From: a virus
Length of the DNA: 61,668 nt
IMG/VR virus record: IMGVR_UViG_3300018080_000115
Span: 76,695 to 138,362 of that record
Strand: one strand, 5' to 3'
A program made the position numbers and the translations under genes. Below the pieces are notes generated by a model. That model saw only the letters and a program-made list of their open reading frames with translations. It ran no database searches and was not told where the DNA came from. Positions 5,880-52,415 of the stretch are shown piece after piece. Numbering within the stretch: the stretch's first letter is position 1; the number at the start of each line of letters is the position of its first letter.

Positions 5880-6609
5880 TCCACATGCTCCTGTTCATGA
5901 TTTGTTGTGTTCCAGCAGCGGTCTGCAACTCTCCTGATGGTATTAAATTGATCATACGTTTATTGATGTTGTCAAGCTCAATTTCATCAACGTACTCGAT
6001 TTTTAAGTCATGAGGAAGAGAATGATAAACCCTGTAAAATTCAAAAGATAATGCAATATATGCCCTAGTCAATGCGCCTTGATCGATCCAAGTCAGGCAA
6101 AGCGGCTGAAGAGCATTCGACTTTGAATAGCGCAAGACTTTTTCCAAGTCTCTTGGATACTCCCAATTTTGATTGATGCTCTTCATGACCCGTTGCAAAA
6201 AATGACGCCCGACACGCACGGATTCAAGATATCCTTGCGCTTCACTTCGAGCCGTCTGTTGCTGCGGGATCACGCTGAACAGCGCCGCGTATCGATTGAT
6301 CGCCCACGCAGTCGTCAGCATCACGGGATAAACGCGCCAATCATGCCGATCGTCTTGCAGCCGATAGAACAGCACTTGAAAATAACGATAAACACTTGTG
6401 TTCATTTTATCGGAGTTTCTTACCGCGCCTTCGAAATGCTTCCAATTTTGGTGAACGCGCGGATCGGTACGGGCAGGCAAGAACATCCTGTTTTCGTCAT
6501 AACAAATCAAGTAGAAATGACTATACCAAATCGAAGCCAGATAAACGCGGACATCCCACGCACTCAATTCCCAATCCAAAGCAACACGGGAAATGGTAAT
6601 TGCGCCCAT
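5869..6609 (-). CDS. hypothetical protein
   Basis: 246-aa ORF coupled to UvsW stop. Confidence 0.7.
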   Translation of the reverse strand: MGAITISRVALDWELSAWDVRVYLASIWYSHFYLICYDENRMFLPARTDPRVHQNWKHFEGAVRNSDKMNTSVYRYFQVLFYRLQDDRHDWRVYPVMLTTAWAINRYAALFSVIPQQQTARSEAQGYLESVRVGRHFLQRVMKSINQNWEYPRDLEKVLRYSKSNALQPLCLTWIDQGALTRAYIALSFEFYRVYHSLPHDLKIEYVDEIELDNINKRMINLIPSGELQTAAGTQQIMNRSMWNVG

Positions 6610-8198
6610 CAGCTCACCTTCTGAATCATGACGACCTGCACATCATGTCCTTCCGCTACCCAAATCTCTTTCCGTGTGCCCGCGTGACGCTCCAAAATCT
6701 CATGGCTTTTATCAAAGAAATCGAACACATGAACCACCCCGCTGTTGTTCGGTCGAAGAGCCCTGCCTAAACGTTGAATCGTCTTGACATAGCTCTTCTC
6801 ACCGCCAGCAATGATCAGGTTGTTCATGCCCGGAAGATCGATCGATTCGTCAAAAATCGGACTGGCCATCAAAATCGCATGGTTCTGCTTGTTGAACGAT
6901 TTCAGAACCCGCTCACGATTGCGCACGCTCCAATCTCCATCGAGATACCACAGCAACTGTTTCGGAACGTGCACTTGAGAATTGTCTTCTCGCTTATTGT
7001 AGATCTCAAACGGATTCGTGCGGTTCACTGCCGGTCTTCCGCCTAAACCGTATTTATGCATCAAAATGTCACCATGTTCGACACGCAGAAACAAAATGAG
7101 CGTCTTGCCTATCAGCCCGCGTGACAGACGAGTGATGAGGAAATTCCGCATGTCATAGTTGATGATGCCCGTTTGATAGATTTCACGATAGCCGTTCGCG
7201 GCAAACATGGCCGCATCACGTCGCCTGACCAGCATCATCTTGATGAACGGCTTCGACAAATATTCTTGCTCTACCAGATCCCGCGTCGGAATCTCGTAGA
7301 TGATCGGGCCGAACAGACTCATGCGCCAGACATCCCGCTCATTGTCTCCCGTGTATGGCGTCCCCGAAAATCCGATCCGCACACGCGCACGCTTGGCGGC
7401 TTTCAACAGACTGCGATTCTCTTTCGAACACGCATGGTGACACTCATCCATCAAGATGACATCGAACTTGTTCATGATTTTCTTGAGCGTCTTGAACATC
7501 TGCCTGATTGCAATGATGATCGGACATCGATCCAAACGCTCTTCGTTCCACTTGTACGGATCATCTTTCGGAGACTTCGATTGTCCGACCACGCAGACAA
7601 TGTCTTTGGGATCGATCCCATATCGGATGAACTGCTTGACCGTCTGTCTGGCCCCTCCCTTCTGATCCATCAACACCAAAACCTTGGCGGCTTTCCCGTT
7701 TTCCAGCTTCTTGTTGAACGCCATTGCCAATGCGGCAAGATCGATAGTTTTTCCCGATCCTGTCGGCTTCTTTACAATGCCGTTCTGAAAATTGACGCAT
7801 ATTTTGGTCGCGTCGACTTGATAAGGGCGAAGCTTATACTCCGTCCCAAACATGTCTGCAGTGATTTCATCGGCGGAAACCGGAAACTGAACACGCTTGT
7901 CGATCAAATTGTATTGCAGCCCCAATTCGTTCATGTATTGAAGAATCGATCCAAGCAGACCGATGCCGAACGTTCCTGTTTCGGCCGAAACGAAATTTCG
8001 ATATGGACTGATCTTTCGTCCAACTACTTGACGCTTCCAGTGTATGTTATCTATCATCATGCGATAACGATGGAACACCAAATCAGGAACGATCCCCATC
8101 ACGATCAGATTTTGCTTGCCGCGCTCTTTCGGCTTGACTGGCGTTCCGTCTTTTTTGACGAAACGCCCAACCACATTGTCTGCAAGAATTGTGAACAT
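6609..8198 (-). CDS. uvsW: UvsW-like superfamily 2 DNA helicase
   Basis: LRPYQ Q-motif, PTGSGKT, DECHH, GFSGTP, QRLGRALR. Confidence 0.9.
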   Translation of the reverse strand: MFTILADNVVGRFVKKDGTPVKPKERGKQNLIVMGIVPDLVFHRYRMMIDNIHWKRQVVGRKISPYRNFVSAETGTFGIGLLGSILQYMNELGLQYNLIDKRVQFPVSADEITADMFGTEYKLRPYQVDATKICVNFQNGIVKKPTGSGKTIDLAALAMAFNKKLENGKAAKVLVLMDQKGGARQTVKQFIRYGIDPKDIVCVVGQSKSPKDDPYKWNEERLDRCPIIIAIRQMFKTLKKIMNKFDVILMDECHHACSKENRSLLKAAKRARVRIGFSGTPYTGDNERDVWRMSLFGPIIYEIPTRDLVEQEYLSKPFIKMMLVRRRDAAMFAANGYREIYQTGIINYDMRNFLITRLSRGLIGKTLILFLRVEHGDILMHKYGLGGRPAVNRTNPFEIYNKREDNSQVHVPKQLLWYLDGDWSVRNRERVLKSFNKQNHAILMASPIFDESIDLPGMNNLIIAGGEKSYVKTIQRLGRALRPNNSGVVHVFDFFDKSHEILERHAGTRKEIWVAEGHDVQVVMIQKVS

Positions 8199-17724: not shown

Positions 17725-18630
17725 CTAGCGTACAACGCGCAAAGTATAGATCTTGGAACCATTCAAAGTGCCTGAAACCAACTTCAAGCCAAGCAGTTCC
17801 GCTGTTCTTCGAATCTTTCTTGGCGTGCGCAATGGAGCACAAACGTAACCAGTGCAAAACACCGTACGCCAACGCTTCCGCGTCTCCGTCCCTGACAACA
17901 ATGGTTCAATCTTTTTTGGAGCACGCCGATCCCGAACGAGATTCCACAACATTTCACTGCGCCGCTGCTTCTCCTCATGATTCACCGAAGGATAACCGAT
18001 TTTCGCGGCATCAATCAACGCCAGCTCTTGATCAATGCCGTCACAGAAATTCAGGATCAGCTTCAGCTCTGCATAGCTGCCGCCCGCATACTGAAAATCC
18101 TGCATGGCGTCGAAGACCAACTGATTGCGCTGATCGCCTTGCTCGCACGACCAAGACAAGATCTGTTGCAGCGCAACACCGCCCGCAAGCCTCAATTCGT
18201 CAGGATCAATGACGTCAAGCGTCTCATCGAAAAAATCCAACGATATGCATTCGTCGCATTGGTCCGAAGATTCAGCCAACTGATCCGCCAGAAAGATTCT
18301 ATTGTATCGTGCCGAAAACTTCCGGCCGCGAAGGCTATACATGAATTTTCGCAGATTGATAAAAAAGAACACATATGAACTATCCATTCTATTTGGATCA
18401 TAAAGGTTGTTATACAGCATTCGAAACGCTCTCGCCAACGCTGCTCCCTCAATTTCCACCTTGATTTCTTCAGGATCGTTATAATTAAGCAGGTTACGCA
18501 CCAATAACGCTATCTGCTTGCCGATCGCGTTCTGCTTGATGATAGCGTTTGGATCTTTCTGCCATTCAAGAAACGCTTGATCAAAGGCAAACTTTTTCGA
18601 ATCGTCTGTTGTTTCACGAGTGGTCGTCAT
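17725..18630 (-). CDS. putative sigma-like transcription factor (gp55/sigma70-type)
   Basis: Region-2-like YDPNRMDSSYVFFFINLRKFMYS; C-terminal HTH-like IRRTAELLGLK. Confidence 0.5.
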   Translation of the reverse strand: MTTTRETTDDSKKFAFDQAFLEWQKDPNAIIKQNAIGKQIALLVRNLLNYNDPEEIKVEIEGAALARAFRMLYNNLYDPNRMDSSYVFFFINLRKFMYSLRGRKFSARYNRIFLADQLAESSDQCDECISLDFFDETLDVIDPDELRLAGGVALQQILSWSCEQGDQRNQLVFDAMQDFQYAGGSYAELKLILNFCDGIDQELALIDAAKIGYPSVNHEEKQRRSEMLWNLVRDRRAPKKIEPLLSGTETRKRWRTVFCTGYVCAPLRTPRKIRRTAELLGLKLVSGTLNGSKIYTLRVVR

Positions 18631-19175
18631 GTGGTCTGTCCTTTTGGTCTTCGTTTCAAGTGAGGATTTTTGAGTTTGAAATGCAGCTTTTTGGGAAACA
18701 AGCTGATCAACTCCTCAATGAAAGCGTTCTCAAAACCTAAATCGCGCAAAACCAGAAACTGTTTGGTCGCCAACGCCCTAAGCCGATTAACGTTCTGCTT
18801 GAACCGTTCGGCAATCGCTTGCAGATGATGTCGAATCTTGCTCTGCAAGCCTATCGGCTTCCCGACTCTGAACAATCTGAAATATTCCTCATCTATATCA
18901 ACAGCAGCATAATCTATTAAAGATTTTTCGCGAATAAATATCAGAATCAAATCGCCTGTTTTTTCATCAATGAAAGGTGCGCACAACATTTCAACATACA
19001 ATGTTTCCATGCCGTCGATCGAATCCATGGCGTACAATTCGTTCGCCTTGATGTCTGCCAAAACATACGGATTCGGGTCATCCAAGATTTCTCTCAGGCT
19101 GTTCTTCTGCACCTGTGCTTCACCTGTTTGGTCGCAATTTTCTTCCGGCTTCTTCAAGTCGTTTTTTCTGTTCAT
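18627..19175 (-). CDS. hypothetical protein
   Basis: 182-aa ORF, ATGA overlap. Confidence 0.6.
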   Translation of the reverse strand: MNRKNDLKKPEENCDQTGEAQVQKNSLREILDDPNPYVLADIKANELYAMDSIDGMETLYVEMLCAPFIDEKTGDLILIFIREKSLIDYAAVDIDEEYFRLFRVGKPIGLQSKIRHHLQAIAERFKQNVNRLRALATKQFLVLRDLGFENAFIEELISLFPKKLHFKLKNPHLKRRPKGQTT

Positions 19176-24019: not shown

Positions 24020-26284
24020 TCAAAACGGTGCACCATCAACAACGTGATGGATCGCAAGCAAATGATACCGCCCATCTCCCTTTTTGGCCAGCGAGATCAA
24101 AATTCGACACCCTTCCGTCAAATGCATCATCTTGTTGTTCGTTTGATCCTTCACCGCTTCATCGAAACGTTCAAGCTCCTTCGACCACATATATGCAACT
24201 ATATTATCTATTCGGAAATTATGCATTTTAACCCACATAAAATATTTGCCTTCATTGCGGCCTGACTTGATCTTCTTCTCTCCGAACGCTTCAACGAACA
24301 CCACGGTATAAACGCTGTCGAAAGCCGGAAGAGCGACGAGTTCTTCAAGCGGATAGATGCCGTTCGGCCTGTCTTCAATCAGACCAGAAATGCTAAAGGC
24401 GTATCCCGCGTAATCCCGTTCGCTCTCCAAAAAGCCCATCGTATCGAGACGAATCCGGTTCTCATGCTTGGTTCTCTTCGACTCATAGAACCTGTCCAAC
24501 AAGGCTTGACGCATTTCCGCTTCTTCAACGCCTTCAATTGCGTCAAAAGCACCGGACAAGATCAAGGCTTCCATAACCCGTTTGTGTCCCGCAGGACTTT
24601 TGAGCGTCTTTTGAATGTAGTCGTCAAGACTCTTGTACGGCTGACGTTCAACGATCACCGGACCAGCGGCACCGGACACATACTTCAATTTATCGAATCC
24701 CAACCGTACGTTCTGGCCCTCTAATTTCACCGTCACCAGCGACTGATTCACGTCTGGCGGAAGAACCTCAACGCCCATTCTTCGCGCCGCGCTGATATAC
24801 GCCAACAACTTGCTGTCCTTCAGATTCTCTGCAACCTGAATCAACGCACCGAAAAATTCCGTCGTGTATTTCGCCTTGATGTACAACTCTCTAAACGAAA
24901 TGAGACTATACTCAAGGCAATGGGCGAAATTGAATGAATACCCAGCCTGCCCAACCACGGTCTCCCACCATTTCGTTGCCAAATCTTCCGGCATCCCGAT
25001 CGACGCACAGTTCTTCATGTACTTCGCCTGAGCGTCTTCCAGGATCTGGGTATGCTTCTCGGTTCGCTTTTCGGGCGGCTTCGTGATGACTTTGCGAACC
25101 TTGTTTGTCCCTGGCAGATCAATGCCGCCCACATAGTGCAGGAAGAGCATGATCTGTTCTTGGTACGCAACCACGCCATAAGTACGACGCATGATCCTCA
25201 AAAACTTGTCGGACACCCCGTATTGAGCAAGCTGTTCGACGTCTGGATAGTCCGCATCCTTCTGCCCGTTGGCATGCTTGTGATAGACTTCAGGAGCGCC
25301 AGCGGCAGACGCGCCCGGACGCATCCCCGCATTGATGAACGTCAGATCATCGAAACTCTTCGGCTGAACCTTGGCGACGCATTGACGACCGGCTGGACCC
25401 TCAAGCTGAAACACGCCTTCCAACTCTCCCCGACACGCCAATTGATAGATGTCAGGATGGTCAAAGCCAAGATCGAACCAGAACTTTTCGTCCATCTCAA
25501 TGCCGTGACGTTCCTTGATGAACCGCATCGCCCACGCCAGAATGTCTATATTCGTCAACCCAAGAAAATCATACTTAATCGCTCCCTGCGGCTGCAACTC
25601 CTCTTTGTTCAAAGCGATCATATGCGCGTTGTTCTTCGAGCGCATGACCGGCAAATATTCGGTTATCGGATCGCTCGACACGACCAGCGCAGCCGCGTGC
25701 TGACCCACACTGCGGATCAGCTCTCCGTATTTGACGACCCATTCCTTGTACATTGGAGATTCGGCAAACAGTTCGGCCGCATGATCCGACTCTTCCTGAA
25801 GCCAGTCCAGTTCTTCCGAAGTCTCATCCAATTCTTTGTCTGGCGGAACATTGTCGAACGCCTTGCACACCTGAACTATTTCTCTTCGATCGTATCCAAG
25901 CCCCTCTCCTATATCCTGCATTCCGCCGCGCACATTCGCATTGCTGAACGTCGCCACGCTCATGATGCGCCCTTTGCCGTACACCGCTTCAAGATACGCC
26001 CTGATTGCCTCACGCCCACGCGGAGAAAAATCGGCATCGATGTCTGGATAGTCGCCTTCGATCCATGAATGATGCAGCGTATCAGGAACAGGAGCAACGC
26101 CCCTCAAGTAGTGATAGAGCACATTGAAAGGATTCTCATCGTCCGCTTCCACGCTGTCCAAATCGAACCCTTGCGTCTGCGCCTGTTCGATTTCATCCGT
26201 CAGATACGACTTCAATTCTAGAAGACTGCCGAGTCGCTGAAGGTCAGGATCTAATGAATATCTTTGTTCAAGAACGTCAAGCAT
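24020..26284 (-). CDS. dnaE: DNA polymerase III alpha subunit (DnaE), lacking PHP domain
   Basis: PDIDADF, GQHAAALVV, KYDFLGLTN, GVFQLE, RPG, YQEQIM, YSFN.AH, PPDVNQS, ALILSGAFD. Confidence 0.9.
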   Translation of the reverse strand: MLDVLEQRYSLDPDLQRLGSLLELKSYLTDEIEQAQTQGFDLDSVEADDENPFNVLYHYLRGVAPVPDTLHHSWIEGDYPDIDADFSPRGREAIRAYLEAVYGKGRIMSVATFSNANVRGGMQDIGEGLGYDRREIVQVCKAFDNVPPDKELDETSEELDWLQEESDHAAELFAESPMYKEWVVKYGELIRSVGQHAAALVVSSDPITEYLPVMRSKNNAHMIALNKEELQPQGAIKYDFLGLTNIDILAWAMRFIKERHGIEMDEKFWFDLGFDHPDIYQLACRGELEGVFQLEGPAGRQCVAKVQPKSFDDLTFINAGMRPGASAAGAPEVYHKHANGQKDADYPDVEQLAQYGVSDKFLRIMRRTYGVVAYQEQIMLFLHYVGGIDLPGTNKVRKVITKPPEKRTEKHTQILEDAQAKYMKNCASIGMPEDLATKWWETVVGQAGYSFNFAHCLEYSLISFRELYIKAKYTTEFFGALIQVAENLKDSKLLAYISAARRMGVEVLPPDVNQSLVTVKLEGQNVRLGFDKLKYVSGAAGPVIVERQPYKSLDDYIQKTLKSPAGHKRVMEALILSGAFDAIEGVEEAEMRQALLDRFYESKRTKHENRIRLDTMGFLESERDYAGYAFSISGLIEDRPNGIYPLEELVALPAFDSVYTVVFVEAFGEKKIKSGRNEGKYFMWVKMHNFRIDNIVAYMWSKELERFDEAVKDQTNNKMMHLTEGCRILISLAKKGDGRYHLLAIHHVVDGAPF

Positions 26285-26573
26285 TTTTCCGTTCTTCGCG
26301 TTCCATCATGATCCCTTCAAGAACACCAACCGGTTCATGAAGCTGTTCATCAGGAATCGGATGACCACTCAATGACCCGATCAGATCTTCATCGGGATTG
26401 AACGGAACCACCAAAACCAGATAATCACGACTGGTGTTTCTGTTCCATTGACTGAGAGTCCGGTTCAATTCCTTCAGCTTCTCAGAAACTTCCGCGCTCA
26501 TATGCTGCTGCGACTGTTTTCTCATGTTTTCCATGACGATCGTTCTCCTCTTTCGTCTCACCATGAGAAACAT
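26277..26573 (-). CDS. hypothetical protein
   Basis: 98-aa ORF overlapping dnaE start. Confidence 0.55.
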   Translation of the reverse strand: MFLMVRRKRRTIVMENMRKQSQQHMSAEVSEKLKELNRTLSQWNRNTSRDYLVLVVPFNPDEDLIGSLSGHPIPDEQLHEPVGVLEGIMMEREERKNA

Positions 26574-26603
26574 ACAACAGCCGCAGCAATTCAGCGCATA
26601 ATT

Positions 26604-26783
26604 TCACGCCACATCGCACGAAACTTTTTCATTCGCGCGAAAACGTTTCAATTCTTGAAGCCACTCTACCAACTGTTGATGATCTTCTGCACATTGCTGT
26701 TCTGAAGACGTCCCGCCTTTGCATGCTTCTGCAACTTCTTGCGCATGCTGAATAGCTTGATCAAGCGTCATTCTATTGTTCAT
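26604..26783 (-). CDS. small phage protein (MTLDQAIQHAQEVA...CAEDHQQLVEWLQELK)
   Basis: 59-aa ORF translated by hand, below track cut-off; overlaps endolysin stop; resembles a common small phage protein pattern. Confidence 0.65.
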   Translation of the reverse strand: MNNRMTLDQAIQHAQEVAEACKGGTSSEQQCAEDHQQLVEWLQELKRFRANEKVSCDVA

Positions 26784-27769
26784 CAGAAAATCACATCTTT
26801 TCTGATGACCACATTGGAAGTGAAAACGCGCAACGTCCTGATCGTCAAAGCATTCGGTTGCTTGGAACGATCAATAGCATAATCGTCTTGGAATTGATTC
26901 ATCGCCCTCTTCGTCTTCTTTCCCCACTTGCCGTCAACAGGAAAGACACTGTATCCCATCATCTGCAACAGACTCTGGAATTCTTTCAAAGACATCTCTT
27001 TGCTGACGTCCTTCAGAATATTCGCTTTGACCCACGCCTCAACCGTCTTGCTCCGTCCAATGTGATTGAAATGCCATTCCTCAACCGCGCGCCGCGCGCC
27101 GTCACGGAACTTCTGACGCACCGATGAAAGAGGCTTCCAACCGAATCGAGCAAAATAGTTCTGCATTTCCAGAATGCGCGTAGCCCTCTTGACTTTGCGG
27201 TCGCTGATGATTCCTTGATCCCTCAGCGTCTCCAAAGCATACTCGACATCGATGTCAAAGGACACTCCGTAATTGTGCCCTGAGAAGCCTGGACGCGCAG
27301 CGATTCGACCTTTACGCCTGCGTACGTTCAGCGAACGTGAAAAGGACCGGTAGATGTCCGTGAACCGAAGCTTGTGCTCAGTCGCCTGCATCAGCGCGCC
27401 GAAGTCTTCTGCGGCAGATTCTTCCATCATCATCATATGATTTGGCAGGAGTCCTTGCGAAGTGTTGTACACGCTTGGAACCCAGCCGACAAGCCTGACC
27501 AATTCAATGTTCAGACGTTGAGCAACATGTCCTTTTTTGACGACTTTCCAGATGTCGTCTAGATCAATCAGCTCAACACGTCGTTGACCGCTCCGAACTA
27601 TATACGTCACAATTTCTGTTTCAACCTCGCTTGAAACAAACGGATCAGTCAGCACCAAACACCATCCCCCCACCCCATTTGAAAGAACGACAATATCCCC
27701 TCTGCGAACATCATTCCTTCCAACCTGATGTTTCTTGACCATGACGTCGGTTTCAACTTTCTCTTTCAT
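26783..27769 (-). CDS. endolysin: M15 (VanY-like) peptidase plus C-terminal peptidoglycan-binding domain
   Basis: YRS, AARPGFSGHNYGVSFDID, EEWHF; VDGKWGKKTKRAMNQFQ; TGATG overlap with thyX. Confidence 0.8.
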   Translation of the reverse strand: MKEKVETDVMVKKHQVGRNDVRRGDIVVLSNGVGGWCLVLTDPFVSSEVETEIVTYIVRSGQRRVELIDLDDIWKVVKKGHVAQRLNIELVRLVGWVPSVYNTSQGLLPNHMMMMEESAAEDFGALMQATEHKLRFTDIYRSFSRSLNVRRRKGRIAARPGFSGHNYGVSFDIDVEYALETLRDQGIISDRKVKRATRILEMQNYFARFGWKPLSSVRQKFRDGARRAVEEWHFNHIGRSKTVEAWVKANILKDVSKEMSLKEFQSLLQMMGYSVFPVDGKWGKKTKRAMNQFQDDYAIDRSKQPNALTIRTLRVFTSNVVIRKDVIF

Positions 27770-29277
27770 CAGTATGACCTTTCCATCTCCATGATTTCCT
27801 CGAAATCGTATCTCCAAAGCTGAACGCCGCAATAACGATCGCCTTCCAAACACGGTGGATCTTCGCCGCGCATCGCGCGTAACTTGCACGTCGGATACAA
27901 GTCAAACGCATCCCCCAAGACATCACGGTGAACATGAGCGACTTGTTGAATCTCTTCGATCACCGAACGCCAAATTTCTTCTTGTGCATTGAAACAGATT
28001 CGAGTCTTGGCCTTGTGTCGGAATCCGTTGAGAGACGCCACCTCCATCAGCCTGATGTTGACTCCGTTCGGAATCACATACAGAGCCTTTTCCGGCGCGA
28101 CTCCCATTTCAATCAGATCGCGAAAGCCTTTCATCATAGTGCCCATCGCTTCCTGATATCTTTCACTGCCGACCAACAGACTCGGAACGTAAAAATCGTC
28201 AGACGTTCCAATCTGATTCAAGAGATGCGGGACGTTGCGGTCAATGACGCGATGACGCTGCTGTTGCGCGTCACAACTCAGAGAATGCTTCTTGGCGAAA
28301 GCGTAGCGAAAATAATTCCCTACCATGCCCGCGTCTTTGGAGACAGGATCAATATTCAACGCATGTTGATCAGATGGAATCGGAAACGTTGGAGACAAAC
28401 CAATCCGATCAAGATAACGAAGCCAGGGATCTTGCAGTGCAAATGTAACATCTGTCGGGAAGTAACCAATCATCTTCGAATACTGGTGTTTCGGACCAAG
28501 AACCTCTTGATCAAAAATCAGATTCGCCTCTTCGGTCTCTTCGGGATCGTAGACGCCGGAAAACTCCATGCTGTCTTCTTGAACAGCATCAAACTGCTGT
28601 TGCAGACCAGCATCTTTCTTCAACACAGCGCCGATCATCGCCTGAACCAACGGTAATGCCTCTTCCTCGAAACTTGGCGTTCGACAAACGGATTTCAGGC
28701 GCAAAAGCGTAATGACGTCAATGGTATAGTACATATGACAAAGCACTGCCAGCGGCAGAACATATCGTGCGTTCTCTTGAGCGATTTGAACAGGCACGCG
28801 CTGCCATTTCGGATCATCCGTGCTTCGATGTTCGAATCGCTTGAAGTAAGCCCGCGACGCATTCTTTTGCAGATCATCCGCCAATGCACGATACGTTTTG
28901 AAAGAAAACGCCATCAGCTCTTTGTAACGTGTCTCTTGCTCTTGTGTCATGCCGCTTGGAATGAAAATCCCGGAAGGGTCCATTCGAACATATCGTTGAC
29001 TGACTTGACTGGTATTATAGAACCTCTGATCGTGCAAAAACGCCCAAACGAGATAACGGCTCACACCATTGAACAAAAAGGTGTATGGTTTATGCTGAAA
29101 GGTCGTGTGATGACCGGAACGGAACAAGTCCTTAAGCAGTTTCGGATTCTCATCTTTTGACGGCTTGACCGGCTTCTCTCCGTAGCATGAACGGGCAGAT
29201 GCGACAGTCATCGCGGAACAAGGCTTGTTGTCAATGATCGAAACTTTCAAGGGCATGATCGGCGTCCTTTCTCTCAT
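27769..29277 (-). CDS. thyX: FAD-dependent thymidylate synthase, tandem two-domain form
   Basis: SGHHTTFQH, SQRYV, ENARYVLP, QRHR, ALYVIPN, CFNAQEEI. Confidence 0.88.
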   Translation of the reverse strand: MRERTPIMPLKVSIIDNKPCSAMTVASARSCYGEKPVKPSKDENPKLLKDLFRSGHHTTFQHKPYTFLFNGVSRYLVWAFLHDQRFYNTSQVSQRYVRMDPSGIFIPSGMTQEQETRYKELMAFSFKTYRALADDLQKNASRAYFKRFEHRSTDDPKWQRVPVQIAQENARYVLPLAVLCHMYYTIDVITLLRLKSVCRTPSFEEEALPLVQAMIGAVLKKDAGLQQQFDAVQEDSMEFSGVYDPEETEEANLIFDQEVLGPKHQYSKMIGYFPTDVTFALQDPWLRYLDRIGLSPTFPIPSDQHALNIDPVSKDAGMVGNYFRYAFAKKHSLSCDAQQQRHRVIDRNVPHLLNQIGTSDDFYVPSLLVGSERYQEAMGTMMKGFRDLIEMGVAPEKALYVIPNGVNIRLMEVASLNGFRHKAKTRICFNAQEEIWRSVIEEIQQVAHVHRDVLGDAFDLYPTCKLRAMRGEDPPCLEGDRYCGVQLWRYDFEEIMEMERSY

Positions 29278-29316
29278 CGTTTGGCATCCTGAAAAACTTC
29301 TTGGAAAAAACCTACC

Positions 29317-29688
29317 ATGAAAAATTCTGAAAAGGAAGCTTTTCTGCTTGAAAAATTAAATTCAATGAACCAACTCGCAAGAAAAGCTATAAACACTCAA
29401 GCAATCAAGAAGAGTCATCCTCTCATCCCCGCAAACCGTCTGTCCATGATCCAAATGCGGATCAATCTGCTCAACAGCATCATGGATCGCATCACATTCA
29501 GCACGCCGTTTCTGTTCAAAGAGAGTATGGACAATCGCTTCGAACGCGGACTTGAATGGCTTTCTGAACGATTCAACAGAATACTACAAAACGAAGTCAC
29601 AGAAACGACAGATGACGACCCCGAATGCAAAAATCTTCAACAAATTATTGAACTGGTCATGAAAGTGGTGATGAACGAAATAAAATAA
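29317..29688 (+). CDS. hypothetical protein
   Basis: 123-aa ORF divergent from thyX. Confidence 0.6.
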   Translation: MKNSEKEAFLLEKLNSMNQLARKAINTQAIKKSHPLIPANRLSMIQMRINLLNSIMDRITFSTPFLFKESMDNRFERGLEWLSERFNRILQNEVTETTDDDPECKNLQQIIELVMKVVMNEIK

Positions 29689-29707
29689 TAAACATCAGAG
29701 ATAAATA

Positions 29708-30406
29708 ATGAAACGATACAAAAAAATAGAGGAAAGGATTCGCAAGGAGATCCCTTCATCTGACGGATGGACCGTGAGCCACAATCTGAATTCAGAAAAG
29801 GACGCCGTGCTGTTCAGTATTTGCGCACCCTTCGCAATGAATGAAGATGGAAACAAGGAAGCTATCAGAATCGTCCTGAAAGTGCATGCAGATTCGTATA
29901 CGATCAGCTACGGAACACATTCCCATCCGAATGTCAGCCGTTGGAAGACGATTCAAACGATTTTGAAACACGTCGTTCTTCACGCAGAGTCCGAACGACA
30001 AAACCTTTCGAACTACCGAAAGCAGCACTCAAAGAACAAGATCAAAGGATCAACCATCCAAGTCGACGGAATCGACATAGAAACAATCCGCTCGCTTACC
30101 ACGTCGCCGGAAGAGCGTTCAAGCCGAGTCGGTCAAGATGAACGCAACGCCCGTTTGGCGACAATCATCCTCTTCCGAGACTTCCTGAACAACATCTTCC
30201 TCACAAGAGTGCGCAACGCGCCAGATGAACTGATCACCCTATCGGAATTGCTCTTGGACTGGACGCGCGAAGCCTACGTCCCGAATCTGGACCAAATCAA
30301 CGCTGTCCGAAACATCCTCATCAACCTACAAGACAGCGTGACGGAATTGAATGAAACGATGCTGTGGGAAGCGATCCTCAAGCGGTCTTTCATGCAATCC
30401 TGGTAG
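29708..30406 (+). CDS. hypothetical protein
   Basis: 232-aa ORF. Confidence 0.65.
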   Translation: MKRYKKIEERIRKEIPSSDGWTVSHNLNSEKDAVLFSICAPFAMNEDGNKEAIRIVLKVHADSYTISYGTHSHPNVSRWKTIQTILKHVVLHAESERQNLSNYRKQHSKNKIKGSTIQVDGIDIETIRSLTTSPEERSSRVGQDERNARLATIILFRDFLNNIFLTRVRNAPDELITLSELLLDWTREAYVPNLDQINAVRNILINLQDSVTELNETMLWEAILKRSFMQSW

Positions 30407-31367
30407 CCGCCGTCTTGTGCTCGAAAAAGAATTCAGGGGGATCTGTGGTCGAAAATCCAGCGGCCTGCGGATGACCACCGCCGCCCAATGACATGGCGAC
30501 ATCGGCAACATTTCGAGTTTCAGAATACAAAGAATATACCCAAGTATTCTTTGAACTGAGCCCAAACACAACCATTGCGTCATGACGTTGCTTGTCGTAA
30601 AAACCGTCGAACGTCATGCTTGTGCGCAAACTGCCGTTGATTGCGATCACGTTCCAATCGTTCGGAAGAAAACGCGCCTCAAAGCCGTTCGACTTCATGA
30701 ACGCTTCATTGGTGCCCTTCACATACGACAAAACCTTCATTCCGTCGTTCACGATTTCCTGACACAGCCTGCCATTTGCTGTTTCGTGATATGTATCAAA
30801 CAACATCTTCCACAGATCCATGCCCTCATCGGTCGCAGGATCGTAGTTGCGCAGCTTCATGCCGTATTGGAACGGCAAAATCTCCTCATCCCATCGATAG
30901 ACATCCCCGGAATGATCCCAGACATCGTAACGACCGAGAAGAGCAACAGCAGTCGGCATCCGTGAACCAGGATAGATATGACGCCACGTCAATTCGATCG
31001 CCGCATAATCGAGCATCACGATTCCATGCACACCGATCAGCTCCGTACTCGATTCCTTCGCTTGTCTTGCGCTCACATGATGGTCGATCCAAAGCAGATT
31101 GCCGTTGTCTTTCAGAAGTCTGCTCAAACGCTCCATTCGCTTGACAGGCTGAAGCATGAAGTCAACCATGTAGACCGCATCCTCTGGACCCATAACGTCG
31201 TCAAAATCCAACGAGCCGTCATAGCGCATGCAATGCATTCTGATGCGTTCTTTCGGTATCACCTCTTCATCCATCAGATGCATCTTGATGATCGCTGCCG
31301 ATCCGAACCCGTCAAGATCGTTGTGATAGACGATGTGATGAATAGGATGAGTCTTGATTTTATTCAT
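30390..31367 (-). CDS. DHH/DHHA1 phosphoesterase (oligoribonuclease NrnB-like)
   Basis: YHNDLDGFGSA, VDF, WIDHH, YSLYS, GGGHPQAAGF; ATG at 31367. Confidence 0.9.
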   Translation of the reverse strand: MNKIKTHPIHHIVYHNDLDGFGSAAIIKMHLMDEEVIPKERIRMHCMRYDGSLDFDDVMGPEDAVYMVDFMLQPVKRMERLSRLLKDNGNLLWIDHHVSARQAKESSTELIGVHGIVMLDYAAIELTWRHIYPGSRMPTAVALLGRYDVWDHSGDVYRWDEEILPFQYGMKLRNYDPATDEGMDLWKMLFDTYHETANGRLCQEIVNDGMKVLSYVKGTNEAFMKSNGFEARFLPNDWNVIAINGSLRTSMTFDGFYDKQRHDAMVVFGLSSKNTWVYSLYSETRNVADVAMSLGGGGHPQAAGFSTTDPPEFFFEHKTAATRIA

Positions 31368-31380
31368 TTCCCTGTTCCCC

Positions 31381-31458
31381 AAAAAGCGAAGCGCGTCGAC
31401 GACCAAATCGACGCGCTCCTTGACCGTTGACTCCCGCTGGGAGTAACAGACAGACCAT
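31381..31458 (-). ncRNA. candidate ~80-nt antisense sRNA / attenuator leader
   Basis: Starts just after a sigma70-type promoter; 5' seed, hairpin ACTCCC/GGGAGT, 10-bp terminator stem AGCGCGTCGA/TCGACGCGCT plus U5. Confidence 0.55.
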
Positions 31459-31462
31459 CTTC

Positions 31463-31492
31463 AGTTTATTTTCAACTCGCATCGATTGTCAA
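31463..31492 (-). promoter_or_regulatory. sigma70-type promoter
   Basis: TTGACA-18-TAAACT. Confidence 0.65.
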
Positions 31493-31493
31493 C

Positions 31494-31746
31494 AAAAAAA
31501 CGGATTGTGTGTGCCCGCCTGAAAACAGTTATTGGAATCGATGAGCCATGATGTAGGTAGGAACCATCAGAAAGGAGACTTTCTCATCATGGCAAGCAAA
31601 GCGTCGTGTCACAAATGAGAATCAGATTGCAGGCCGATGTCATCTGAGGCAATGAAACGCTATGCACAACGAAACCGCATCACTCCTTTTCAAGTTTGAA
31701 GTTTCAGCCGCTGCGCCGCATCCACTTCACACACAATCCGTTCTTA
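31494..31746 (-). ncRNA. candidate ~250-nt structured RNA
   Basis: Perfect 15-bp closing inverted repeat (31499-31513/31728-31742), U7 at 3' end, internal branched stems, promoter immediately upstream. Confidence 0.5.
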
Positions 31747-31751
31747 TCAAA

Positions 31752-31780
31752 GACATACCGCATCAGACCAAACGCTTCAA
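31752..31780 (-). promoter_or_regulatory. putative sigma70-type promoter for the structured RNA
   Basis: TTGAAG-17-TATGTC with A-rich upstream tract. Confidence 0.4.
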
Positions 31781-31789
31781 GCTTTTTTT

Positions 31790-31842
31790 CAACAAAAAGC
31801 GTCAAGGCAGGAGCCTGTTTCGACAGTGCCTCCTGCCCTGAC
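31790..31842 (-). terminator. intrinsic terminator after 370-aa gene
   Basis: GTCA.GGCAGGAG...CTCCTGCC.TGAC long hairpin followed on - strand by GCTTTTTG. Confidence 0.65.
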
Positions 31843-31954
31843 TGCGTGCAAGGAAGACGATCCGATTCAATTGATTGAAAACGCCCGGTAGCTAATCGTG
31901 ACGTTCGCTGTCGTGCACGATTGCGTCGAACCGAATCCAAGCACGCTTTCAAAA

Positions 31955-33067
31955 TCAAAAGGCTTCATCTTTGACAGATGCCTTGACCTCCGATTTGGGT
32001 TGTGCATTTCGAAATGCTTCAAAATACTGCTTCGAAATACGTTCCATGCCATCAGCAAAGTCAAGAAACTCTTGAAGTTCGCACATGACGTCTGGACAAT
32101 TCTTGACGATCCCGTTCGGATTTTCTTCAATCAGCTCTCGAATCGCAACGGCTGCCGCATGGATATGGCCCCCTGCGATCATCCCAGGAACCCGCTCCAT
32201 CTTTTCGTTCGAAACATTCATGATGGCACGAAATTCCGTTGCAATGCTTTCGGAATATTTGATGAACTGAGGAAAGAGCCCTTCCGAGTAAGGCAATTCA
32301 GACTGAATCCCCCCCGAATCAAGATAGATCTGAAGAGCCCGGTCAAGATCGATTCCCCACATCAGAGATGCGCAGTACGCATCATAGACGATCTGAGACA
32401 AAGCCCAAGAAGCCTGAGCGACGTTGTTGCTCTCAAGAACCATTTGATACGCATGAAATGCTTCTCTGATTTCATGCGCTCTACGACTGTTCTCAGGTGC
32501 CCTTCGGTCGTCTAAATTACATGAGACAGGATGAGACGGGAACGGAATCGGTTCGAATTCGGATTTGGAAATCAGACGATCGAACCGCTTCAAGCCGAAC
32601 GTGTCGGACGGCAAAGAACCGGAACGGAGAGCGCGCCAAGCAGTGAACGGCAACGACCTTTCACGAATCGAAGCGCGCAGCATTGCATCACTCATGTTAA
32701 GATTCGACCACCATCCATCAGACAAAGAATTCACTTGTCCGACAAAGCCTTCCTCGCCTTCTTCCATGTTGCCGAACTTGAACAGATAGGTTCCGTCAAT
32801 CACAGGCAGTCCAACCACCTCCCCATTCTCGACTTCGATGGAATGCCAAACAGTCTTTTTCGACACCATGGAATCGTCCTGATGGGAATCGACAACATAA
32901 TGGCATTTGGCCAGCAACTTCCTTTTCAATCGATTCATGGCCTTGTCCACTTCACGAATGTCAGCCTTGTCCGCACAGTCACGAATACGCTCTTCCCATT
33001 CATCACGAAACTTGCCTACAGCTTCGTCCAGCTCTTTCATCAGCTCATCGATTTGGATCATCAACAT
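31955..33067 (-). CDS. hypothetical protein (weak degenerate MazG-like segment)
   Basis: 370 aa, own promoter and RBS; LSQIVYDAY..SLMWGIDLDRAL resembles MazG-fold helices but lacks obvious acidic ligands. Confidence 0.7.
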   Translation of the reverse strand: MLMIQIDELMKELDEAVGKFRDEWEERIRDCADKADIREVDKAMNRLKRKLLAKCHYVVDSHQDDSMVSKKTVWHSIEVENGEVVGLPVIDGTYLFKFGNMEEGEEGFVGQVNSLSDGWWSNLNMSDAMLRASIRERSLPFTAWRALRSGSLPSDTFGLKRFDRLISKSEFEPIPFPSHPVSCNLDDRRAPENSRRAHEIREAFHAYQMVLESNNVAQASWALSQIVYDAYCASLMWGIDLDRALQIYLDSGGIQSELPYSEGLFPQFIKYSESIATEFRAIMNVSNEKMERVPGMIAGGHIHAAAVAIRELIEENPNGIVKNCPDVMCELQEFLDFADGMERISKQYFEAFRNAQPKSEVKASVKDEAF

Positions 33068-33126
33068 GGTCTGTCTGTTCCTTTCAAATCTGCCGCTTGG
33101 TGATTGAGAATACAGATCAGAAAATC

Positions 33127-33155
33127 AGCGTAGCGTATCCGTTACAATCTGTCAA
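33127..33155 (-). promoter_or_regulatory. sigma70-type early promoter
   Basis: TTGACA-17-TACGCT; TGTAAC in spacer. Confidence 0.7.
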
Positions 33156-33312
33156 GAGAATACCTGGATTGCCCGATTGCTGCTGCAAGAACACAAGAAC
33201 GCTGTTCTGTTAGGCATTGCCGTTATGAGGCTTGTTCGAATGGCTGCACAGAACCGCCGCAACGCGGCTGCGCATCCCATGGGTTAGCGGGTATTTTTTC
33301 GGCAGATCTAAT

Positions 33313-34887
33313 TCAATTAAAAATTCGTGACAAATTAGCAGATGGACTATTGCTTTTTGTAATCAATGGTGATAGGTTCGGTTCAGCAAGTTCACGGAAG
33401 TCCGTGCTTTGAAAAACCAGATTGTGCGTTCTCCGTTTGACAGTCGGAAAGCGGCTTGCGTAAAGCATGTTGCCCTTCGACCACTTCCGTTCATGAAATC
33501 GCATTCGACGGATTATCGGCTTGTCCATCGGCCCGCACTGAGTGTCTGATAACCGGAGAGCCATGCGGCTTGCACAGATGTGTAGAGGCCGCGCCCCTGA
33601 ATCTCCTGAAGAAGACGCAGTTGTCAGATCCTCAGCTTCCCATGGTATAGACGGGTTGGCATCAAGTCTGTAGCCGTCGACGATTCGAGTCTGGACGTTG
33701 GAGCCGTAAACGTTCGGGATGTCTCTTTTCAAGGTCATCACCGACACAGTTCCTTTTCGGCACATTCCCAACGTCCAGATTTTCATCCATTCCCTTGTTC
33801 GATTCGGAATGAACGGAACCCCGAATTCATACTCGACATTCTCAAGGGAAACTATCCCCATTTGCAGAGCATCTTCATCCAAAACAACTGTGTGCGCTTG
33901 TTCGCGGATGAAGAAGGTTGCACGGTGCCCTCTCGATTCTTGAAACAGTTCTGCTTCAGGAACCGAGCGGGGCACCACTACCATCGTCTTGATCACTCTT
34001 CCTAGTCTGTCTCTTTTGTAGCCTTCTGTTGTTTCTGTCTGTTGTGTTCTTTGCTGTTCTGCTTGTTCGTTTGTTCGCTTTTTGTCGTCTTGTCCGTTTT
34101 GTTCTTCTTGCTCAGCTTTGAATTCTTGCCATGTCTTCACTTCTACTTTGAACTCTGTTTCGCTGCTTCTGAATACAATGGCTTTCAATTGCTTTTTGCG
34201 TTTGATCTTCAGCGTTTTTCGTTCCGACAAATGCCGAATGACAGCCGCTCGTGTCAAGTCCAATTCTTCACCAATGGTGCGGTACGAACGACCACAGGGG
34301 TATTCGTCGATTGTCTGTTTCTCTTCTTGTTTTCTGAATTCGTGCAATTTTTCTGTTTTAGCTACTCTTTTCTTTGTTATCTCGCCGTTTTTGTTGATCG
34401 TTTCGACTTGCCTTGTTTCTCCTTCATCTTGTGCTTTCCCTGATGGTCTGATTGCAATCAGTTCGGTATACAGTTGTTTGAACTGAACGAGTCTGAATTC
34501 TCCTCTTTGCAGCTCATCGGAAATGTCATGCTCGACGATGTAGAGGTTGCGCTGATTCGCGGTCCAATCATCGAAAGAAACGGCGTCCGCCGCTCGTTCC
34601 GCAAGCAGCTTCAACGCCTGCGGCATTCCGACGAAATAGACCCGATCGCTCTGCGTGGCGTGATTGAAGAATCCGATGGGATTGCGGCGCACGTTTATCA
34701 AGATCTGATCAGGCTGCACATAACCCATTTCGATCATGATGCGCCGCAGTTCGCGCAGACGAAAAAAAGACCCGTGATGGAATCGCTTCGCAGCTTCTCT
34801 TGCAAGCGACAAGAGATAGACGTGCTTCAAGTCCCTCTGTTTGATGTTGGCTATGACTGGAACCTTGATTCTCATCTGTTGCCTCAA
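33313..34887 (-). CDS. HTH-containing DNA-binding protein, possible replication initiator
   Basis: RSYRTIGEELDLTRAAVIRHL HTH; K/E/Q/T-rich low-complexity middle. Confidence 0.55.
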   Translation of the reverse strand: MRQQMRIKVPVIANIKQRDLKHVYLLSLAREAAKRFHHGSFFRLRELRRIMIEMGYVQPDQILINVRRNPIGFFNHATQSDRVYFVGMPQALKLLAERAADAVSFDDWTANQRNLYIVEHDISDELQRGEFRLVQFKQLYTELIAIRPSGKAQDEGETRQVETINKNGEITKKRVAKTEKLHEFRKQEEKQTIDEYPCGRSYRTIGEELDLTRAAVIRHLSERKTLKIKRKKQLKAIVFRSSETEFKVEVKTWQEFKAEQEEQNGQDDKKRTNEQAEQQRTQQTETTEGYKRDRLGRVIKTMVVVPRSVPEAELFQESRGHRATFFIREQAHTVVLDEDALQMGIVSLENVEYEFGVPFIPNRTREWMKIWTLGMCRKGTVSVMTLKRDIPNVYGSNVQTRIVDGYRLDANPSIPWEAEDLTTASSSGDSGARPLHICASRMALRLSDTQCGPMDKPIIRRMRFHERKWSKGNMLYASRFPTVKRRTHNLVFQSTDFRELAEPNLSPLITKSNSPSANLSRIFN

Positions 34888-34913
34888 TGACAGCCTGCAA
34901 TATGTTGTGCTTC

Positions 34914-34942
34914 ATCATTCGAAAAAAACCGCTTACTGTCAA
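34914..34942 (-). promoter_or_regulatory. sigma70-type promoter (leftward, divergent pair)
   Basis: TTGACA-17-AATGAT. Confidence 0.5.
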
Positions 34943-35015
34943 GAGATTTTGTCGATCCCAAAAGAGACGGACAAGAAAAAATCACAACTTGTTGAAATCA
35001 CTAAAATAAAAAATC

Positions 35016-35044
35016 TTGACATTCTGTAACCAAAGCGTTACAAT
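35016..35044 (+). promoter_or_regulatory. near-consensus sigma70-type promoter with overlapping palindromic operator
   Basis: A-rich UP tract, TTGACA-17-TACAAT; TGTAAC-N6-GTTACA at 35025-35042. Confidence 0.8.
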
Positions 35045-35101
35045 CTGCGTAAAGGTTGAACGAAGACTGAAGGACAGACCAAGACCAAAGGATCAAAAAA
35101 A

Positions 35102-36472
35102 ATGTGCGGCATCTACGGAATCATCAGTACCAAGAAAGACAAGAGACTTCCTCACGAAGCGGTTATTCTCTTCCAGCACTTGATTGTGGAGACTGTTCCG
35201 CGCGGAACTCATTCATTCGGCTACACAACGGCTGATCACAAGGAAGGATCGATTCAGACGTTCAAGCGTGTCGGACATCCGGTTTCGATCGGACGCGCCA
35301 TTCAAGACGAGATGTCGGAAGACATTCTTGCGTCGCATGCCGTGATGGGACATAACCGATATGCTTCGCGCGGCAAGATCACCAAGAATAACGCTCATCC
35401 GTTCCAGGATCAACAACATGTTTTCAGCCTGATTCACAACGGCACCATGACCAAGAAAACCCTCAAAGAAATCGGGAACAAGGTCAAGACGCGCATGCCG
35501 CTGCCGAAGTCGGACACCAAGGCGTTCGCCAAGATCATTGGAACGTCCATTTCCAACGCGCTGAAGCGCAGAAATCTCGAATATGCGGACAGCAATCTGA
35601 TCGCAGAAATCGCCCGCAAGTGGATGAGCCAGCTCTACTCGTACGACCTTTATTCCATGGCCATTCTGACGCCTGACAGCATCATTTGGGCTCGCAACAT
35701 CGGAAAGCCGGTCTGCATCGCTCATCTGGTGGAGCAAGGTTTGATCGTGTTTGCGTCAACCAGAGAAATTCTGGTCAATGCGATCAATAATGTGTTCGGC
35801 AAGGTTCCGAAAAAACTGATCTACTTCTCCACTCCTCCGAACAAGATGACCATGTTCAACTTCAGCCGTAAGGGAAAGGTCAGTTCGCGGCTTCAGTGGT
35901 GGACCTGGGATTCGCCGCCTTTCAATTTTCAGGATGCGCCATTGTCCTATCGAATGAAGGAGATGGAGAAGCTAGATCCGAAAAAACAAAAGGCGGTATT
36001 TGACGAGCGAGGAAGGTTTCGCGGTTTCAATGATGGTTCCGACCCCTACGATACCGAAACAATCTATCTTGACGCGGAAGGCTTCCCGATCAAAAAACTG
36101 CGCAAGGGAAAGAAAAAGAAGAAGAAGCATCAAAAGCAAAAGCGTCGCAACCGCAATCACGAATACTTCGATGGATTCGAAGACGATTCGCTGCAAGCCG
36201 ACATGTTTGACCAAGATGAGCAATGCGAGTCTGAAATCGAGGTTGATATCGAAACCATTGATGAAGTCACGCCGATTGATGTAGAAACCGAACGGATGCA
36301 GCGGGAAAGCGGTATGAGTCGCCTGGAAGAACATCTGCTTGAACAACGCATGCAGAGAGCAGACTACAACAGCAAGGAATATTTCGAACTGTATCAAAAG
36401 CGGTTCGGCATGTTCCATCCCAATGATCCGGACTTCAATTGTATTTCTAGCTCCAACAAGAAACTCAACTAA
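35102..36472 (+). CDS. class II glutamine amidotransferase (Ntn hydrolase) with charged C-terminal extension
   Basis: MCGI N-terminal Cys nucleophile, RG, GHNRYAS, NAHPF, HNG, SDT, FAST. Confidence 0.88.
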   Translation: MCGIYGIISTKKDKRLPHEAVILFQHLIVETVPRGTHSFGYTTADHKEGSIQTFKRVGHPVSIGRAIQDEMSEDILASHAVMGHNRYASRGKITKNNAHPFQDQQHVFSLIHNGTMTKKTLKEIGNKVKTRMPLPKSDTKAFAKIIGTSISNALKRRNLEYADSNLIAEIARKWMSQLYSYDLYSMAILTPDSIIWARNIGKPVCIAHLVEQGLIVFASTREILVNAINNVFGKVPKKLIYFSTPPNKMTMFNFSRKGKVSSRLQWWTWDSPPFNFQDAPLSYRMKEMEKLDPKKQKAVFDERGRFRGFNDGSDPYDTETIYLDAEGFPIKKLRKGKKKKKKHQKQKRRNRNHEYFDGFEDDSLQADMFDQDEQCESEIEVDIETIDEVTPIDVETERMQRESGMSRLEEHLLEQRMQRADYNSKEYFELYQKRFGMFHPNDPDFNCISSSNKKLN

Positions 36473-51905: not shown

Positions 51906-52415
51906 TCACAGAGAGCTGAGAACATCGTCGGCCAGTCCAACCGCCAGCTTCTTTGCATCATCGATTGGAATGTTCTTGATTCGAGTCGTCAGCGATCTGA
52001 AAAGCGCCGTCGCCAAGCGTTTTCGATCAATCGGAGCCTGTTGCTGCTGTTGCGCTTCCGTGATCGCTTGAAAATCAATAGGGCTGTCGTCATAAGACTG
52101 CTGTCGCCCTCTACCATTACCTTCGTTTGACCTTGGTTGGACGCCATTTCCAGGACTGTTGACGAAATCTTCAAAGCCGCCAGCGCCGCCCAACTGCGCC
52201 ATCTGCTGCATCAGAGATGCGTCCACTTCTTCATTGATCGTTGGAGCATTTTGCAGTTCGTTTTCATCGATCGGCCGCATGTATTGCTTGATATGCTTTT
52301 GATCTCCGTATTGCTTGATGATATGCTTTTGATCTCCAAAATTGAACGGCTGCCCTTGACCCTGATTCCCTTGTTGTTGCTGTCCCATTATGGCCTGTCT
52401 TCCTTTCGTCATCAT
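51906..52415 (-). CDS. Gln-rich hypothetical protein
   Basis: 169 aa, overlaps neck gene stop. Confidence 0.65.
   Translation of the reverse strand: MMTKGRQAIMGQQQQGNQGQGQPFNFGDQKHIIKQYGDQKHIKQYMRPIDENELQNAPTINEEVDASLMQQMAQLGGAGGFEDFVNSPGNGVQPRSNEGNGRGRQQSYDDSPIDFQAITEAQQQQQAPIDRKRLATALFRSLTTRIKNIPIDDAKKLAVGLADDVLSSL
52281..52337. repeat. in-frame tandem duplication (27 + 30 bp)
   Basis: GTATTGCTTGAT(GAT)ATGCTTTTGATCTCC x2, encoding GDQKHI(I)KQY. Confidence 0.9.

Follow-up and report, generated by a model that had tools for sequence, protein, structure and literature searches.

A predicted small RNA of a T4-like phage with a 5′ end complementary to a tag shared by the start regions of putative early genes

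The window analysed here is the last 61.7 kb of a viral contig (C1, 138,362 bp); coordinates are those of the window unless preceded by C1. The locus of interest is flanked by two minus-strand genes, one encoding a 370-aa protein (31955..33067) and the other a DHH phosphoesterase (30390..31367). The contig is linear, approximately 70% complete as estimated by CheckV, and encodes a gp23 capsid protein, gp32, a T4 baseplate protein, DnaE, RecA, ThyX and an SbcCD-like pair, a combination that assigns it to a T4-like phage. Among the DNA sequencing runs, a sediment metagenome matches it best and may be its source. Its gene set (n = 186) was called with a custom script.

A sigma70-type promoter-like site, TTGACA-18-TAAACT, is present where the initial annotation had placed it (31463..31492, minus strand); it matches the consensus at 10 of 12 positions, with a spacer of 18 nt and a -10 box that agrees at four of six. 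A small RNA of ~75-78 nt is predicted downstream of it (31381..31458, minus strand; start placed at 31458-31456), which doubles as the 5′ leader of the DHH gene. The RNA would begin with the seed AUGGUCUGUCUGUU (31445..31458, minus strand), followed by hairpin 1 (ACUCCC/GGGAGU; 31421..31450, minus strand) and an intrinsic terminator-like element (31381..31419, minus strand). The 86-nt strand of the locus folds with a z-score of -4.0, and none of 200 shuffles was equally stable. The terminator had been described with a 10-bp stem and a run of five uridines; the stem is present, with 13 pairs (31419-31388) instead of 10, and is followed by an interrupted U-tract, GCTTTTTGGG. The seed, also described as exposed, is so only in part: nucleotides 1-6 (AUGGUC) are predicted to be open, whereas the adjoining UGUCUGUU is weakly paired to a downstream AACGGUC, an extension of the hairpin 1 stem that partly covers the seed. 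Opening of the seed costs 4.5-7 kcal/mol.

Consensus scans yielded seven promoter-like sites (9.1 in shuffles) and nine terminator-like sites (11.0 in shuffles). Since such sites are no commoner than in shuffled sequence, consensus matches by themselves carry little weight, and the promoter and intrinsic terminator that a trans-encoded sRNA would be expected to possess are present at the consensus level only. The terminator at this locus is the strongest found within 170 nt of any of 38 sigma70-like sites (-23.4 kcal/mol), and for the 19 other intergenic terminators no promoter lies upstream within this distance; the RNA locus itself was omitted from that set of 19, because the DHH frame had been called from an upstream TTG. 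No second copy of the locus was found in the contig, and an Rfam search of positions 26000-36000 returned five weak hits, all outside the locus and below gathering score. An identical-looking 318-nt contig over 31402-31719 was found in two other DNA runs (0 differences); some coding pieces from the same runs differ and others are identical, and the runs share contigs, so the 318-nt identity was not counted as evidence. The ATG of the DHH gene (31367) lies 13 nt past the U-tract. Promoter scans revealed no other promoter for this gene; read-through of the terminator is therefore likely and probably feeds the DHH gene, which agrees with the earlier suggestion that the terminator acts on it.

The 370-aa gene is preceded by its own sigma70-type promoter (33155) and encodes a soluble ORFan: no Pfam, PHROG or PDB hit was obtained, and sequence searches returned only the protein itself. 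A helical domain of degenerate MazG-like type may make up its C-terminal half (atlas value 0.76, below the bar). The 14-nt sequence AACAGACAGACCAT occurs at 31445-31458 (plus strand) and 33066-33079 (minus strand) and, allowing up to two mismatches, at no other site in the window (shuffle mean 0.27). The exact reverse complementarity reported earlier between the RNA and the start of this gene is thus present, and extends to 18 of 20 nt. The two copies lie 1.6 kb apart, and the two mismatches remove the Shine-Dalgarno (SD) sequence and the ATG from the plus-strand copy, which suggests that the RNA gene originated from a short inverted duplication of the 370-aa start region. Such an origin says nothing against a later function of the RNA. 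A 14-nt inverted match in 62 kb is not rare per se (several were estimated to arise by chance), nor are the consensus sites, and the case for a regulatory RNA therefore depends on where the copies of the shared sequence are positioned.

A 9-nt core, GACAGACCA, is found four times in the window, at 18632-18640 (minus strand), 31449-31457 (plus), 33067-33075 (minus) and 35073-35081 (plus), compared with 0.46 expected; a count of four was reached in none of 100 shuffles. The first and last of these sites lie exactly where the initial annotation had placed them. On both strands of the 138,362-bp contig, the shorter tag GACAGACC occurs 15 times (Markov expectation 3.4-4.5): 12 copies are located at start regions, two in 5′ leaders, 21 and 33 nt ahead of the start, and one, in reverse, at the predicted 5′ end of the RNA. 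The 12 start-region copies end 0-3 nt ahead of the start codon, most of them as AAGGACAGACC, fused to the SD sequence, and the copy at 31449-31456, GGUCUGUC, is the only reversed one among the 15. Over the 186 genes, GACAGACC was the only top-ranked start-region 8-mer without an SD core, and ACAGACC and GACAGAC were the leading 7-mers in the 11 nt that precede starts (13 and 12 genes, respectively). The core is invariant in all nine aligned sites. Within coding sequence, the tag is absent where 1.8 copies were expected, an avoidance that is not significant (P 0.16). The distribution of copies is a real, non-random feature of the contig, and the tag marks 14 genes instead of the one to three first proposed.

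Near-variants of the tag (CAGACCG, GACCGACC, GACCGAACC and GACAGAATC) precede further small genes at C1 33160, 33685, 39853, 40503 and 20293. Past the terminator of the 370-aa gene, part of the tag recurs in reverse as the 7-nt TGGTCTG (31764-31770, minus strand), which may be due to chance. The reversed copy at the RNA locus was also considered as a plus-strand sponge or the relic of a gene, and this was rejected, as neither a suitably spaced plus-strand promoter nor a start codon after the copy is present.

The 14 tag-carrying genes lie at C1 12327, 14404, 18280, 23066, 27911, 31539, 38889, 39574, 58473, 61661, 72974, 94419, 108649 and 111796. The tag was found in 11 of the 19 promoter-proximal genes, defined as the first gene behind an intergenic sigma70- or sigma54-type promoter, versus three of the 167 others (Fisher p 1.4e-10); four of the five intergenic sigma54-type promoters stand ahead of carriers. 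The tag, its positions, its link to both promoter types and its one reversed copy are direct observations on the sequence. From the host-type promoters, we infer that the carriers are early genes. They include all three Amidoligase_2 paralogues (37-48% identical), which lie behind both promoter types, and a class II glutamine amidotransferase gene (35102-36472, plus strand), so that the two families are tagged at four separate loci; the predicted target site of the amidotransferase gene is in its leader, 21 nt before the ATG (35073..35081, plus strand; net pairing energy -9.9 kcal/mol). In phage UFV-P2, amidoligase and amidotransferase genes adjoin in an early module, as described in the accessible portion of the report (PMC3890496), whereas here they are scattered and have the tag in common. 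Another predicted site (18632..18640, minus strand; net -9.7 kcal/mol) lies ahead of the ATG of a 301-aa gene (17725-18630, minus strand), a tagged ORFan in the replication cluster. The earlier label of this gene as sigma-like could not be substantiated: its product gave no Pfam or PHROG hit, sequence searches returned only itself, and one of the clusters near it in the atlas contains 15% Sigma70_r2, which is a lead only. The remaining carriers are a GmrSD N-terminal-like protein and, for the most part, ORFans. The exact tag was found on no virion gene, and no antirepressor family was found among the 14 carriers.

Among the 38 sigma70-like sites, only the RNA locus would give rise to a transcript that begins with complementarity (at least 8 nt) to 12 start regions; the next best site reaches four. 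The complementarity of the seed to start regions elsewhere in the contig is above chance. Twelve start regions were reached by 78 of 20,000 seed shuffles, and the same-sense and reversed controls reached 0 and 2. Of all 16-mers in the genome, 0.4% attain 12 start regions, mainly through anti-SD content. Net pairing energies, which include the opening costs of both the RNA and the target, are -8.4 to -12.0 kcal/mol for 13 of the 14 carriers, compared with a median of -2.1 kcal/mol for non-carriers; the exception is the carrier at C1 58473 (-6.3 kcal/mol). Carriers occupied 13 of the top 14 places among the genes scored. Because the tag defines the carriers, this ranking is in part a restatement of the motif; it speaks for feasibility and is not independent proof. 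A non-carrier late gene in the structural region (51906-52388, minus strand) has a wobble variant of the tag and a net energy of -9.9 kcal/mol.

Taken together, these findings give strong sequence support to the earlier idea that the 5′ end of a phage antisense sRNA masks start regions, now with a set of 14 genes, and we consider it probable that a trans-acting, multi-target phage sRNA pairs with the tags and blocks translation of early genes. Host RNA polymerase would make the ~78-nt RNA from the host-type promoter, and its open 5′ AUGGUC would nucleate on GACCA(U) and zip to 9-14 pairs, forming a duplex that covers the end of the SD sequence, the spacer and, in some cases, the AUG. As the stable RNA accumulates, the first cistrons of early operons would undergo delayed shut-off, and downstream genes could in consequence be silenced by polarity. 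Terminator read-through would supply the DHH phosphoesterase, and the RNA gene itself may derive from an inverted copy of the 370-aa start region. Delayed shut-off during lytic growth is the preferred timing; repression in a carrier state is possible. Opinion is evenly balanced on a broader proposal, in which one 78-nt RNA, acting on at least 14 scattered, tagged early genes, would be a master switch that has replaced early shut-off of the RegA/RegB type; this proposal takes in both promoter types, the whole amidoligase/amidotransferase set and a DHH protein made by read-through.

A different explanation, distinctly less probable but a serious one, is that an RNA-binding protein, such as a RegA-like repressor, a nuclease or an activator, recognizes the tag, or that the tag simply belongs to a strong ribosome-binding cassette that is favoured and has spread along with early promoters; the reversed copy would then be the remnant of a short inverted duplication and lie in the DHH leader by chance, next to a terminator that is an ordinary attenuator. 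Extra copies of AGACC are present in carrier leaders (7 in 14, versus 9 in 172 others); these match the open toehold of the predicted RNA and would equally suit protein binding. Upstream of the tag, 11 of the 91 carrier pairs have leader similarity above the 99th percentile, and the related leaders fall into two pairs with sigma54 promoters and one set of four with sigma70 promoters. Such promoter-leader families, which account for eight of the 14 leaders, speak for this explanation, and T4-type phages are described as shuffling PeSL promoter/stem-loop cassettes in the part of PMC2839356 that is accessible. The 18/20 identity with the nearest carrier, 1.6 kb away, likewise suggests duplication, and T4 RegA and RegB are proteins that act at start regions (PMC3014915, accessible text). 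However, the other six leaders are largely unrelated, sharing two borderline-similar pairs outside the tag, so that with three leader families plus singletons, simple copying is insufficient to account for all 14. Paralogues of three carriers outside the amidoligase/amidotransferase set are without the tag, which indicates that the tag is not just carried along with coding sequences. Searches of the contig for CsrA and Hfq gave no match; those for RegA and RegB were blank, with positive controls equally silent, and since the contig is ~70% complete, a protein regulator could lie outside the sequenced part. This explanation also needs the lone reversed copy to have fallen by chance within the first 10 nt of the sole promoter-terminator mini-unit.

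It is improbable that the predicted RNA serves only as an antisense RNA for the neighbouring 370-aa gene, in the manner of sar, OOP or an antitoxin, with all other pairings too weak to matter. The site at that gene (33063..33082, minus strand, from the SD sequence to the AUG) is indeed the best predicted target: 14 pairs form without interruption, the net energy of -12.0 kcal/mol is the most favourable of all, and the gene is only 1.6 kb from the RNA. Yet twelve other carriers follow at -8.4 to -10.9 kcal/mol, and invariance of the core in the nine aligned sites also argues for more than one target. Type I toxins are small and hydrophobic. The 370-aa protein is large and lacks a hydrophobic helix (maximum 19-residue hydropathy 1.12; no carrier is above 1.43), so a type I toxin-antitoxin system, as raised in the initial annotation, is unsupported. 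Very improbable is that the inverted 14-20-bp copies are recombination sites that flip the 1.6-kb segment, comprising the 370-aa coding sequence and the DHH promoter, in a phase-variation switch: the copies are inverted around one gene and the contig contains a serine recombinase gene (C1:1111-1692, minus strand, beside a DNA methyltransferase fragment), but the other 13 start-region copies are left unexplained, the recombinase is extended by 54 residues at its N terminus and has nothing beyond the catalytic domain (a layout that we take to be IS607-like and not that of an invertase), no tyrosine recombinase was found in the ~70%-complete contig, and no inversion joint was seen among the contigs of three runs, although contigs drop rare forms.

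The multi-target sRNA favoured here would resemble several known regulators in part, and the predicted RNA falls outside the C4, sar, StxS and RegA/RegB families, being like the first three in its pairing and like RegA/RegB in its scope. In the accessible texts, the C4 antisense RNA of P1/P7 is reported to be required for full ant repression (PMC8198154), and sar RNA of P22 to block initiation of ant translation (PMC12197685). Both are short RNAs of phages whose pairing represses phage genes, as is predicted for the RNA described here; however, each controls a single antirepressor operon in a temperate phage, whereas the sites described here are 14 and spread over a T4-like genome. Membership in the C4/CI/sar group of immunity RNAs was rejected, as there is no Rfam match at gathering score, no antirepressor carrier and no tyrosine integrase in the 70%-complete contig. 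StxS is a regulatory sRNA produced by termination just behind a promoter, the read-through transcript of which encodes the downstream genes (PMC7547250, accessible text); the same termination-plus-read-through layout is shared by the short PR′ leader RNAs StxS and lambda 6S and is predicted for the present locus. StxS, however, originates from a lambdoid prophage late promoter, is processed and Hfq-bound, and targets rpoS and stx1, whereas here the primary transcript would start with the seed, which matches a tag on the phage's own early genes.

The breadth of the predicted regulon has a parallel in T4, in which the RegB endoribonuclease and the RegA repressor each inactivate many early mRNAs at start regions, according to the available part of PMC3014915. 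Both are proteins, and they recognize GGAG or AU-rich sites; in the present model, an RNA would be the reader and a dedicated 8-mer the site. Trans-encoded bacterial sRNAs that combine an intrinsic terminator with a short seed at the 5′ end use the latter to pair with several targets at the ribosome-binding region (PMC12197685, accessible text), from which the present candidate differs in being phage-encoded, in having near-identical tags in the leaders of its own genome, and in the lack of an Hfq match in the contig. PeSL elements, which are repeated sigma70 promoter cassettes before non-essential early genes of T4-type phages (PMC2839356, accessible text), consist of a promoter and a stem-loop terminator, whereas the tag follows two promoter types, is fixed to the interval between SD and AUG, and has a reversed copy. 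A PeSL cassette was also rejected for the RNA locus, which is unrepeated in the contig, while the carrier promoters are only partly similar. The phage sRNAs compared here target one phage operon or reprogram host genes, and in the literature consulted, mainly non-subscription main texts, we found no phage sRNA described that recognizes a common tag on early genes of the same phage. If the proposal is correct, it would provide an RNA route to the early-to-later switch, in which early genes of the phage itself are tagged and controlled as one regulon; the mechanism of this switch is described as only partly understood even in T4, in the accessible text of PMC3014915. The tag also groups many ORFans with the amidoligases into one putatively co-regulated set.

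Collections of viral, metagenomic and bacterial sequences and of GenBank phages yielded no relatives with the RNA locus, the last giving no match to the locus. Queries with the 370-aa protein, a 520-aa protein, the 387-aa amidoligase and ThyX led to no related viral locus. Relatives of the DHH protein were found at 67 viral loci and among the best 80 of 247 metagenomic matches; these are at most 39% identical and not syntenic with the RNA locus. Two capsid relatives (77% and 67%) share only structural and TnpB genes, and GACAGACC is present at two sites in 54 kb of one of them and at none in the other. A promoter-plus-seed pattern matched 11 viral sites, all of them lacking the two-hairpin layout as well as a nearby second tag; these were taken as chance, as was the single hit of a seed-plus-hairpin pattern in bacterial genomes, located within coding sequence. 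With an SD-plus-tag pattern, estimated to be present in ~370 stretches, two start-linked tags within ~4 kb were found in none of the 118 loci examined.

Several further features were observed. Positions 6385-6696 (plus strand) of L286 match the Thoeris inhibitor Tad6 family above the family cut-off. A structured non-coding region of ~240 nt with no Rfam or phage match lies immediately upstream of the RNA promoter; it is closed by a perfect 15-bp inverted repeat (31499-31513/31728-31742), and within it a hairpin (31546-31618, plus strand) conceals AGAAAGGAG ahead of a 9-codon frame. The spacers of eight sigma70-type promoters, five of them before carriers, are filled by a palindrome near TGTAAC-N6-GTTACA (9-12 of 12 positions), with sites at C1 23011, 24190, 30383, 34313, 61613 and 67255 and at window positions 33129-33146 and 35025-35042. 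The RNA promoter is without this palindrome, and the RNA and its targets may therefore be under separate control. The palindrome resembles the TGTCAC..GTGACA rows near sigma54 promoters, and a common regulator is possible.
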